A DNA stretch of 6,146 nt from a virus (taxonomy: Duplodnaviria > Heunggongvirae > Uroviricota > Caudoviricetes): IMG/VR virus record IMGVR_UViG_2706794681_000014. One strand, written 5' to 3'. A model generated the notes under the pieces. The model was given only the letters and a program-made list of their open reading frames with translations. It was not told where the DNA came from and ran no database searches. Within the stretch, counting starts at the first letter, position 1. Every line of letters begins with the position of its first letter. Both the position numbers and the translations under genes were made by a program. Shown here one piece after another: positions 2,500 to 3,744 of this stretch.

Positions 2500-3744
2500 T
2501 CATCCGTTCTGGCTGACTAAATCCTGTACTTCCCGAACCGTCTGCTCAAAACGTTCAGTCTCCAGCTCAACGCCAATTGCACGACGCCCGAGCGCCAGTG
2601 CCGCTTTCACTGTCGAACCCAACCCCATGAAAAAATCTGCAATCAGGTCACCCGGACGACTGCTAGCGCTGATTATCTGCTGCAGCATTTCTGCCGGTTT
2701 TTCGCACGGATGTTTCCCGGGATAGAACTGCACCGGTTTATGCGTCCACACATCGGTATACGGCACCTGCACCGTCACGCCAAAATACCGCCGCAGATGT
2801 TTATATTCACTCAGCAGCTCCGCATACTGCCGGTTCAGTGAGGTATACGTATCCACCAGCTGGTGGTGGAGCTTTTCCAGTTCACCACGCCGATGCTTCT
2901 CTTCTGCCACCCGGGCAAACAGCGCCTGTAATTTCAGATAATCGCTTTCATTCGGCAACTGCCACTGACCGGCACTGAACCAGTGCGACACCATGTTTTT
3001 CTTTCCTGTGGCATCTGCAATCTGTTTTGCCGTTATCCCCAGGGCAGCTCGCGCATCACGAAAGTAAGAAATCAGCGGGGCCATCACATGCTGTTTCAGT
3101 GCACTGCCCTTCGCCGCATACCCGGCATCTTTCGGACGATACGGCCCCTGATAATGTTCCGCGAACAGAATGCGCTCTGTGGCGGGGAAATACGCCCGCA
3201 GGCTTTCCTTGTTGCATCCGTTCCAGCGTCCGGACGGCTTCGCCCAGATAATATGGTTCAGCACACTGAAGCGTTCACGCATCATGATTTCGATATCAGA
3301 TGCCAGGCGATGACCACAGAACAGGTAAAGACTTCCGGCAGGTTTCAGCANNNNNNNNNNNNNNNNNNNNNNNNNNNNNNNNNNNNNNNNNNNNNNNNNN
3401 NNNNNNNNNNNNNNNNNNNNNNNNNNNNNNNNNNNNNNNNNNNNNNNNNNNNNNNNNNNNNNNNNNNNNNNNNNNNNNNNNNNNNNNNNNNNNNNNNNNN
3501 NNNNNNNNNNNNNNNNNNNNNNNNNNNNNNNNNNNNNNNNNNNNNNNNNNNNNNNNNNNNNNNNNNNNNNNNNNNNNNNNNNNNNNNNNNNNNNNNNNNT
3601 TCTGCTTTTGCGCAAAGCAGTGGGCCTGAGGTTTGCTTGTGAACCCAACGCATGAGCAGATGGCTGGTGGGTGCCCCTAACACCCACCAGCCGCCCATTT
3701 ACCACAAATAAAAAAGCCTTCACTGCGGAAGGCGTCTGTAACAA
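2500..3744 (-). CDS. DNA methyltransferase, beta-class N6-adenine/N4-cytosine (PF01555-like); no adjacent restriction enzyme visible
   Basis: The C-terminal 283 aa are unmasked and carry HPCEKP (HPTQKP-like) followed by DLIADFFMGLGST (AdoMet-binding motif I, DPFxGSGTT-like), plus LKPAGSLYLF typical of the segment after the DPPY motif. The expected DPPY catalytic motif lies in the masked block 3351-3599. Stop TGA at 2500-2502. The 5' boundary is unreliable: the ORF-track start is TTG at 3744, and the true start is probably in or near the mask. Confidence 0.8.
   Translation of the reverse strand: MLQTPSAVKAFLFVVNGRLVGVRGTHQPSAHALGSQANLRPTALRKSRXXXXXXXXXXXXXXXXXXXXXXXXXXXXXXXXXXXXXXXXXXXXXXXXXXXXXXXXXXXXXXXXXXXXXXXXXXXXXXXXXXXXLKPAGSLYLFCGHRLASDIEIMMRERFSVLNHIIWAKPSGRWNGCNKESLRAYFPATERILFAEHYQGPYRPKDAGYAAKGSALKQHVMAPLISYFRDARAALGITAKQIADATGKKNMVSHWFSAGQWQLPNESDYLKLQALFARVAEEKHRRGELEKLHHQLVDTYTSLNRQYAELLSEYKHLRRYFGVTVQVPYTDVWTHKPVQFYPGKHPCEKPAEMLQQIISASSRPGDLIADFFMGLGSTVKAALALGRRAIGVELETERFEQTVREVQDLVSQNG
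3662..3692. repeat. perfect inverted repeat carrying the Chi octamer (GCTGGTGG) in both orientations
   Basis: GCTGGTGGGTG (3663-3673), 7-nt loop CCCCTAA, CACCCACCAGC (3681-3691); extendable by one G-C pair (3662/3692). GCTGGTGG is present on the plus strand at 3663-3670 and on the minus strand at 3684-3691. Confidence 0.6.
3706..3733 (-). terminator. possible intrinsic terminator after the small wHTH ORF (minus strand)
   Basis: Stem GCCTTC / GAAGGC (3716-3721 and 3728-3733) with a 6-nt loop, followed on the minus strand by TTTTTTATTT. It overlaps the ORF's TGA stop. The stem is short (6 bp), so this is tentative. Confidence 0.35.

Follow-up and report, generated by a model that had tools for sequence, protein, structure and literature searches.

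A perfect inverted repeat that presents the Chi octamer GCTGGTGG on both strands lies at positions 3662–3692 of a 6,146-nt stretch of Caudoviricetes DNA (IMG/VR record IMGVR_UViG_2706794681_000014, referred to in its entirety as the window). Comparison with related loci indicates, with a probability that we place at about 0.72, that this repeat forms helix P2 within a folded 5′ leader RNA of ~135 nt belonging to a gene for a DNA methyltransferase of the M.EcoGII family. GCTGGTGG is the octamer recognised by RecBCD of Escherichia coli, when the enzyme arrives from the octamer's 3′ side, and the sequence-only reading of the window had taken the repeat for an element that acts on RecBCD entering from either direction; such a bidirectional device is not supported by the distribution of the two octamers among relatives.

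In the mechanism that we propose, the leader would be transcribed on the − strand within the Q-dependent late transcript, starting just past an intrinsic terminator and ending at the methyltransferase start codon, with its last helix (P5) abutting the AUG, and the presence of Chi (GCUGGUGG) in the G/U-rich 5′ arm of P2, on the strand active in lambdoid phages, would be coincidental. The position of the leader, its fold and the known toxicity of the enzyme suggest that the RNA limits or times expression in cis, by way of translation initiation, mRNA stability or processing, and the − strand octamer may also act on RecBCD.

The predicted leader fold and its covariation

The repeat, which falls within ...ATGGCTGGTGGGTGCCCCTAACACCCACCAGCCGCCCATT... 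(window 3660–3699), reads GGCTGGTGGGTG-CCCCTAA-CACCCACCAGCC: its two 12-nt arms (3662–3673 and 3681–3692) are 100% complementary at a spacing of 7 nt, and exact Chi octamers occupy 3663–3670 on the + strand and 3684–3691 on the − strand. We calculate that a stretch as long as the window should contain ~0.02 perfect 12-nt inverted repeats within 60 nt by chance; this figure and the excess of Chi described below establish that the palindrome is real and not accidental, as the sequence-only reading had held. Its placement there, between the terminator of a small winged helix-turn-helix (wHTH)-like open reading frame (ORF) and the methyltransferase gene, is also borne out, and the aside that the repeat might double as an RNA hairpin has become the central point of the present analysis. 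One further perfect 12-nt inverted repeat is present in the window (791–824; TCCTTATGGACT, 10 nt, AGTCCATAAGGA), at the 3′ end of an IraM-like ORF (486–821, +).

Four stretches of the window are masked with N (1685–1942, 2003–2213, 3351–3599 and 4162–4442), and the 3′ third of the leader and the start of the methyltransferase gene fall within them. These parts were read in relatives, among them the closest one, the E. coli TOE17 chromosome (L001; 99.5% identical over 3600–4161), from which the start codon at ~3569 was taken.

The ~135-nt block is conserved while the sequence upstream of it changes completely among relatives. Its predicted fold (Table 1) opens with a three-way junction, in which P1 closes around P2 and P3, and continues with P4 and P5, the 3′ strand of P5 ending a few bases before the AUG. 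RNAalifold, applied to a MAFFT alignment of 32 diverse copies (A1), recovers P1, P2, P3, P5 and two pairs of P4; the five-pair P4 was defined by hand and then tested by pair counts in A3, a structure-based alignment of 72 matches (67 of the rows being distinct; species-level sampling, at one genome each, supplied about two thirds and viral contigs the remainder). The window allele folds with a minimum free energy of −63.4 kcal/mol (z = −4.1).

Standard pairs make up 95.2% of the cells in A3, a figure that is inflated by the fitting of A3 to a covariance model, and 19 of the 34 pairs have changed on both sides. None of 500 shuffles reaches the observed values, and structures slid by 1–3 columns pair only 30–45% of cells. 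P1 is paired in 99.7% of cells, with compensatory change in three of its five pairs, and P2 in 97.4%, with six pairs changed on both sides. The closing pair of P3 covaries in both alignments (A1, columns 51:75: AU 11, CG 10, UA 9, UG 2; A3, columns 50:84: CG 29, AU 15, UA 12, UG 5). The P2 helix is kept in Providencia (arms GACUGUAAAGGUG/CACCCUUACAGUC) and in the viral contig L127 (arms GGCGGAGAGGGUG/CACCCCGUCCGCC, GGCGGA.../...UCCGCC), with Chi on neither strand in either case.

The polarity of the variation was compared through cells that hold G·U as opposed to A·C: these number 118 vs 37 overall, 45 vs 8 in P2 and 66 vs 4 in P5, in which one conserved G·U pair occurs in 55 of the 67 sequences. 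This excess of G·U, together with the upstream terminator of the same polarity, argues for an RNA transcribed in the sense of the methyltransferase gene. The assignment to RNA nevertheless depends on the nested five-helix fold and its covariation, not on the wobbles of P2.

Two short motifs flank the fold. The sequence (U)GUGRAAA directly 5′ of P1 (3698–3705, −) is kept despite divergent upstream sequence, even in Xenorhabdus and Photorhabdus (GGUGAAAUG); a promoter within this conserved TGTGRAAAT was considered and set aside, the hand-made matches to an extended −10 element being weak and inconsistent between alleles. At the other end, a GATC (a Dam site) is near-invariant 1–4 nt ahead of the methyltransferase start (UGAUCYAUG; L001 4971–4985, masked in the window at ~3570–3584). 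No recognisable Shine–Dalgarno sequence precedes the methyltransferase start codon in the leader copies examined.

A protein-coding origin of the conservation, either as a small ORF (MGGWWVLGAPTSHLLMRWVHKQTSGPLLCAKAE) or as an N-terminal extension of the methyltransferase, is suggested by the window allele itself, in which a 33-codon ORF with an ATG start spans the hairpin and no stop interrupts the methyltransferase frame as far back as 3744. In the most frequent loop variant (GUUGUAGC), though, a UAG comes after seven codons, and insertions and deletions shift the frame in other members; the ATG lacks a Shine–Dalgarno sequence and lies in P1, where it covaries (GUGGGC/GCCCGU in L127, UGAGC/GCUCA in L158). 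With stops and frameshifts in many members, this explanation was rejected and has next to no probability. Translational coupling through an upstream ORF that ends at the methyltransferase AUG was rejected as well; it is found in some members and is absent from many.

Conservation and orientation of the Chi octamers

Relatives in IMG/VR were sampled in two ways, with an anchor on the right arm and with anchors outside both arms (GCTTGTGA-N7-8-CATGAGC). Among the 127 right-arm-anchored copies, the left arm is GGCTGGCAGGTG in 54, GGCTGGTGAGTG in 18 and GGCTGGTGGGTG, the perfect arm, in 17; ~20 have a 13-nt arm that is longer by one base, 6 have GACTGACAGGTG and 10 lack the arm. The ~118 true members retrieved with the outside anchors carry the − strand Chi in 110 cases and the + strand Chi in only 22, and A3 gives a matching picture (− strand Chi in 55 of the 67 distinct rows, both octamers in 6). 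The − strand octamer is thus retained in ~82–93% of copies and the + strand octamer in 9–19%. The alleles GGCTGGTGAGTG and GGCTGGCAGGTG are one or two transitions away from the window allele, and they destroy the + strand Chi while keeping the RNA pairing.

The second octamer exists because the 3′ arm of the window allele is a perfect Watson–Crick complement of the 5′ arm; one C>U transition, which yields a G·U pair, makes it vanish and leaves the helix unharmed. Comparison of the alleles thus points to conservation of the − strand Chi only, with the + strand Chi as an apparent by-product of perfect base pairing. On the eight bases of the 5′ arm, selection for Chi and selection for the helix would be inseparable, in that the high retention of the − strand copy falls on bases that the RNA helix constrains too. 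The 76-nt segment is present in 1792 of 5426 complete E. coli genomes (about a third), and 612 of 1796 records from such genomes match the exact double-Chi window allele best. The double-Chi palindrome is therefore a common E. coli allele and yet a minority state of the element, one transition from the nearest allele, which makes a template switch at a quasi-palindrome unneeded as its origin.

The window holds seven Chi in 5147 unmasked bases (+ strand at 2859 and 3663; − strand at 1158, 2853, 3684, 3999 and 5712), compared with 0.17 expected from dinucleotide shuffles, none of which (0/200) reaches seven. Relative to the mean for E. coli K-12, one Chi per 4.6 kb (PMC12315714), seven or more would occur with a Poisson probability of ~1.6 × 10−4. 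The − strand of the window corresponds to the lambdoid top strand, since the Q, methyltransferase and lysis genes read rightward, and five of the octamers are on the top strand and two on the bottom. In the standard lambdoid orientation, the − strand Chi of P2 lies on the strand of these genes and the + strand copy lies opposite. As only the right end of cos-type lambdoid phages is open to RecBCD, only top-strand Chi are active (PMC12315714); both + strand Chi of the window would be in the inactive orientation, and they exist solely as palindromic mates of octamers in the active one. The bias extends across the family: 134 non-identical related loci (1.23 Mb) have 696 Chi on the strand of late transcription against 309 on its complement (0.82 per kb; 2.25:1), a count to which the anchor itself adds about one per locus. 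Two individual phages agree, phiP27 with 12 top-strand and 5 bottom-strand Chi (that of the leader at 15936, 5.9 kb left of cos) and phage 1720a-02 with 17 and 4. A count of Chi and of its orientation bias, which the sequence-only reading had proposed as a check, thus finds enrichment and a top-strand bias in the window and in its relatives.

A second palindromic Chi pair lies within the methyltransferase coding sequence (Table 1). It is present in 46 of the 134 related loci, and elsewhere the antisense octamer alone survives (CCACCAGCTGGTCA, CCACCAGCTGCTGG); once one Chi is present, an overlap of this kind has a chance of ~1 in 4096. At 3999–4006, relatives share the octamer without change but differ in its flanks (CGCGCTGGTGGCGGTG, CACGCTGGTGGTCGTG, TTCGCTGGTGGTTATT), a pattern suggestive of selection on the Chi octamer as such in that region.

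These data bear on the proposal that the palindromic octamers attenuate RecBCD from either side, load RecA and protect linear phage DNA. Both octamers are exact, Chi is enriched locally and across the prophage family, a second palindromic pair exists in the methyltransferase gene and the perfect allele is frequent in E. coli, all in keeping with such an element. It is nonetheless very unlikely: the + strand Chi is missing from ~81–91% of homologous hairpins, in which it is exchanged through changes of one or two bases; the distant members in Providencia and L127 retain the helix without any Chi; RNA pairing would fully explain the palindrome; the family-wide bias to the top strand speaks against selection for a two-sided element; and the + strand copy faces the wrong way for RecBCD that enters at the right end of a lambdoid genome (PMC12315714). 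The sequence-only reading had held that it would fail if the palindrome were degenerate in close relatives and Chi no denser than background; the palindrome is indeed degenerate as DNA in close relatives, and the density of Chi is far over background.

Most simply, the − strand octamer in P2 would be one more top-strand Chi of Chi-rich prophages, sited where the RNA tolerates it. The Chi richness and the top-strand bias of lambdoid phages are already published (PMC12315714, PMC3784561), and the window resembles those phages in its exact GCTGGTGG octamers, in a density far above chance and the E. coli average, in the bias to the late-transcription strand and in the frequency of Chi toward the right end (the Q-to-lysis region). 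It differs from them in that the papers describe single oriented octamers that are scattered and mention no palindromic pairs, 'palindrom' and 'inverted' occurring nowhere in PMC12315714, whereas here an RNA helix would contain the conserved Chi, and the palindromic mate of that Chi is unconserved and in what would be the inactive orientation. The Chi aspect thus adds little to known biology, the two-sided arrangement being a side effect of base pairing.

Linkage to the methyltransferase gene and alternative explanations

A covariance model of the leader, built on 46 sequences, was searched against both strands of 629 kb and returned 72 matches, all of them directly 5′ of the methyltransferase gene and on its sense strand; the window itself matches at 3595–3704 (−) with 82 bits. 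Among 80 loci that encode relatives of the methyltransferase, fetched as one genome per species, the leader was found in Escherichia, Salmonella, Klebsiella, Enterobacter, Citrobacter, Kosakonia, Buttiauxella, Erwinia, Providencia and Morganella.

The methyltransferase read from L001 has 349 amino acids (aa), with DPPY at residues 35–38 and FMGSGS near the C-terminus, and matches Pfam N6_N4_Mtase with E = 2 × 10−44. By these features it belongs to the M.EcoGII/M.EcoGI family and would be an orphan without a restriction gene. The region of the window is 94.6% identical in DNA to phage 1720a-02 (match H3), which has been named as a carrier of an enzyme very similar to M.EcoGII (PMC5778455); M.EcoGII is reported to be non-specific, to do harm when constitutively expressed and to be silent in the lysogen (PMC5778455). 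In every context examined, a hairpin that resembles a terminator, and that varies in sequence, stands ahead of the leader.

Several findings, in addition to the inflated pairing in A3, weigh against a leader RNA. P3 has more A·C than G·U cells (20 vs 6). In P2 taken alone, wobble cells outnumber mismatch cells only ~2:1, and a transition bias on a free 3′ arm, facing a 5′ arm that is kept for some other reason such as Chi, could suffice for that: because the 5′ arm is nearly all G/U, most transitions in the 3′ arm give wobbles, so P2 by itself would not prove an RNA over a DNA palindrome. Six variants with a helix-turn-helix (HTH) gene keep P2 without P1 or P3–P5, which indicates that P2 may act independently of the full leader. 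The leader is absent beside the relatives of the methyltransferase in Erwinia endophytica and in Pantoea; in Xenorhabdus and Photorhabdus, a shorter hairpin is all that accompanies them. The frequency of the double-Chi allele in E. coli makes a benefit of the second Chi conceivable, and the regulatory role of the leader is one that we infer.

In the Xenorhabdus and Photorhabdus loci (L195–L228; methyltransferase identity 62–67%), a hairpin of ~8 bp occupies the position of P2, ~90 nt upstream of the methyltransferase gene, directly after a gene ending in ...FFKRCP. Its arms are GGCUGGUG/CACCAGCC, or GGCGGG/CCUGCC with compensatory changes, and it is often followed by UUUU, as in an attenuator; this hints at an attenuator-like ancestry.

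An operator in DNA for a dimeric protein, most likely the product of the 65-aa wHTH-like ORF acting on the methyltransferase in the manner of a controller protein, was considered as an explanation for the palindrome. The ORF precedes the leader in 96 of the 103 viral copies and in 31 of the 44 copies at species level, the inner half-sites GGGTG-N6-7-CACCC have, in our reading, the geometry typical of an operator, and compensatory changes in both arms would fit one that co-evolves with its protein. An operator is still improbable to a high degree. About 20 leaders without a homologue of the ORF within 700 nt upstream retain P2; only one arm varies, with a one-base bulge in most species; P2 is nested in P1 and flanked by P3–P5, of which an operator leaves the covariation unexplained; and the site is downstream of the ORF and its terminator, with no promoter-like site found in a scan of 3300–4200 on either strand. 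The wHTH call is itself below the cutoff (TrmB, 18 bits against the Pfam cutoff of 25.6), and PHROGs gives phrog_331 as of unknown function. The arrangement invites comparison with C protein/C-box systems, in which likewise a small HTH-like gene stands beside a DNA methyltransferase gene with a palindrome in between. Here, though, the palindrome is downstream of the terminator of the small ORF rather than at a promoter, it is kept where the ORF is missing, it varies in ways that maintain RNA pairing, and the enzyme is an orphan, presumably non-specific one without a restriction gene (PMC5778455).

The leader may also be more specific than a cis-acting structure, namely a new class of regulatory RNA that senses a signal, either as riboswitches do or through a phage or host protein, and thereby controls translation of the toxic, sequence-non-specific methyltransferase in late lytic growth, with P2 serving both as RNA structure and as a Chi signal in DNA. 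This version is doubtful, with perhaps an outside chance of being correct; if true, it would place P2 under constraint at two levels, from which the near-invariance of the 5′ arm from Escherichia to Morganella would follow.

The leader resembles known cis-regulatory 5′ leaders in its fixed site upstream of one gene family, its covarying fold of several helices, its conserved junction nucleotides and its last helix, which abuts the start codon of a gene that is toxic if over-expressed. It differs in that it belongs to no family of Rfam 15 and that no U-run follows it, which sets it apart from a classical attenuator in E. coli. P2 shares with intrinsic terminators and lambdoid tR′ the form of a G+C-rich hairpin in a late operon downstream of Q; it was rejected as a terminator in E. 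coli, as the stem is followed not by a U-tract but by AUCUGCUCAUG, neither arm of the repeat leads into a run of T, and the terminator scan called only its neighbours at 3733–3716 and 4061–4042. With permissive thresholds, no Rfam 15 family reaches its gathering score on the leader, whether in the window or in L001, which is unmasked; the highest-scoring overlap is with P26, on the opposite strand (24.2 bits vs a gathering score of 36). The anti-sRNAs (small RNAs) AgvB and AsxR of enterohaemorrhagic E. coli prophages were discounted, as these are sited between moron genes and the next phage ORF and not upstream of a methyltransferase (PMC4104026).

No description of the leader was found in the literature searched, and it apparently constitutes an undescribed RNA motif; comparative evidence supports it as a new candidate cis-regulatory RNA. 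It is widespread, with copies across Enterobacterales and in roughly one in three complete E. coli genomes. Enzymes of the M.EcoGII family are widely used as tools for chromatin footprinting, and the leader provides a testable handle on how phages time a toxic, non-specific adenine methyltransferase. It also sits in the Q-to-stx interval of Shiga-toxin (Stx) phages, where RNA elements of the late transcript are of medical interest. The palindrome carries a caution as well: single G·U to G–C changes in an RNA helix, or the reverse, can create or erase a striking motif in DNA.

Gene context and mosaic junctions

The genes around the repeat are all on the − strand (Table 1) and make up the late region of a lambdoid prophage of Stx-phage-like type; the tRNA genes are followed by a DUF3927 gene, an STnc100-like RNA and the IraM-like ORF. 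The same arrangement is found in phiP27, phage 1720a-02 and many Stx2 phages.

Table 1. Features of the predicted leader and of its surroundings in the window (positions on the whole stretch; − strand features read from high to low numbers where so given).
Feature	Position	Strand	Basis or remark
P1 5′ strand (UGGGC), pairs with 3621–3625	3693–3697	−	RNAalifold; conserved GUGRAAA (3698–3705) ahead
P2 5′ arm (GGCUGGUGGGUG)	3681–3692	−	Carries the conserved Chi 3684–3691, in the top-strand ('active') lambdoid orientation
P2 loop (UUAGGGG)	3674–3680	−	Varies in sequence and length in relatives: UUGUAG, UUGGUAG, UUAGCG, UUGACG
P2 3′ arm (CACCCACCAGCC)	3662–3673	−	Complement holds Chi 3663–3670 (+); varies by C>U, A>G and one-base bulges
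P3 (xGCUCAUG...UCACAAGCy)	3634–3658	−	Hypervariable loop; closing pair x:y covaries
P1 3′ strand (GCCCA)	3621–3625	−	Closes the three-way junction P1–P2–P3
P4 hairpin (CUGCUUUGCGCAAAAGCAG; GCUUU-loop-AAAGC)	3602–3620	−	Pair counts
P5 (AUGAGCC...GGCUUAAU), conserved GAUC and methyltransferase AUG	3569–3601	−	Masked in the window; read from L001 and other relatives
RusA gene	5644–5270	−	
Antiterminator Q gene	5273–4146	−	
Terminator after Q	4061–4042	−	Terminator scan
Top-strand Chi, intergenic, between the post-Q terminator and the 65-aa ORF	3999–4006	−	
65-aa ORF, wHTH-like	3917–3720	−	phrog_331; TrmB match below cutoff
Intrinsic terminator directly upstream of the leader (GCCUUCcgcaguGAAGGC then UUUUUUAUUU)	3733–3716	−	Terminator scan
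M.EcoGII/M.EcoGI-family beta-class N6-adenine DNA methyltransferase gene	~3569–2500	−	Pfam; RefSeq annotation in L001
Second palindromic Chi pair (CCACCAGCTGGTGG)	2853–2866	both	In the methyltransferase coding sequence, codons HHQLVD
tRNA genes Ile(CAU), Arg, Arg	2459–2212	−	ARAGORN, RefSeq
Top-strand Chi in the DUF3927 gene	1158–1165	−	In one partner of the direct repeats flanking a deletion

Several relatives lose homology to the window within the hairpin or next to it. In some, a gene for an HTH-domain protein follows P2 in place of the methyltransferase gene. Two others (L003 and L005) lack the leader along with the methyltransferase and tRNA genes, and the 5′ arm of the leader abuts the DUF3927 gene. 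The junction in L003 corresponds to window 1091–1152 (55/62 identical) followed by 3682–3741 (60/60 identical), and the deletion of ~2.5 kb in both lies between direct repeats, ACACCC(GCC)ACCAGC (1143–1165 and 3681–3697), each of which carries a top-strand Chi. The fusion in L005 is annotated as a 24-aa DUF3927 protein, and the DUF3927 gene there is truncated. These junctions are suggestive of recombination near Chi.

Such variants could mean that the Chi hairpin is kept as a boundary between recombining modules, a junction at which cassettes (the methyltransferase gene, an HTH gene or nothing) are exchanged or deleted; the breaks in homology at the hairpin, the fusions across repeats 2.5 kb apart and the HTH-gene variants that keep only P2 all agree with this. 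The junction variants are, however, a minority (16 of 127 copies), and the covariation of P1–P5 and the strict linkage to the methyltransferase gene would be left unexplained, which makes a module boundary an improbable account of the repeat. It is in any case compatible with a leader RNA, and not a replacement for it.

The prophage is heavily deleted in L001 (6742–9170), where partial genes for DUF968 and exoribonuclease-domain proteins abut xis/int ~2 kb past RusA; the window prophage may accordingly be a cryptic remnant, not an inducible phage. No stx genes follow the tRNA cluster within the window. The cluster is of the type typical of Stx phages (ileZ-argN-argO), its first tRNA being called Met(CAT) by ARAGORN and Ile by RefSeq in L001. 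Between Q and its terminator (4035–4141, −), at the expected place of the pR′–tR′ short transcript, sub-threshold Rfam matches were obtained to Trp_leader (22 bits) and, in L001, to isrK (16 bits). Finally, STnc100, a gammaproteobacterial sRNA of Rfam, has a full-length match at 847–1036 (−), between the IraM-like ORF and the DUF3927 gene, with 132 bits against a gathering score of 47.

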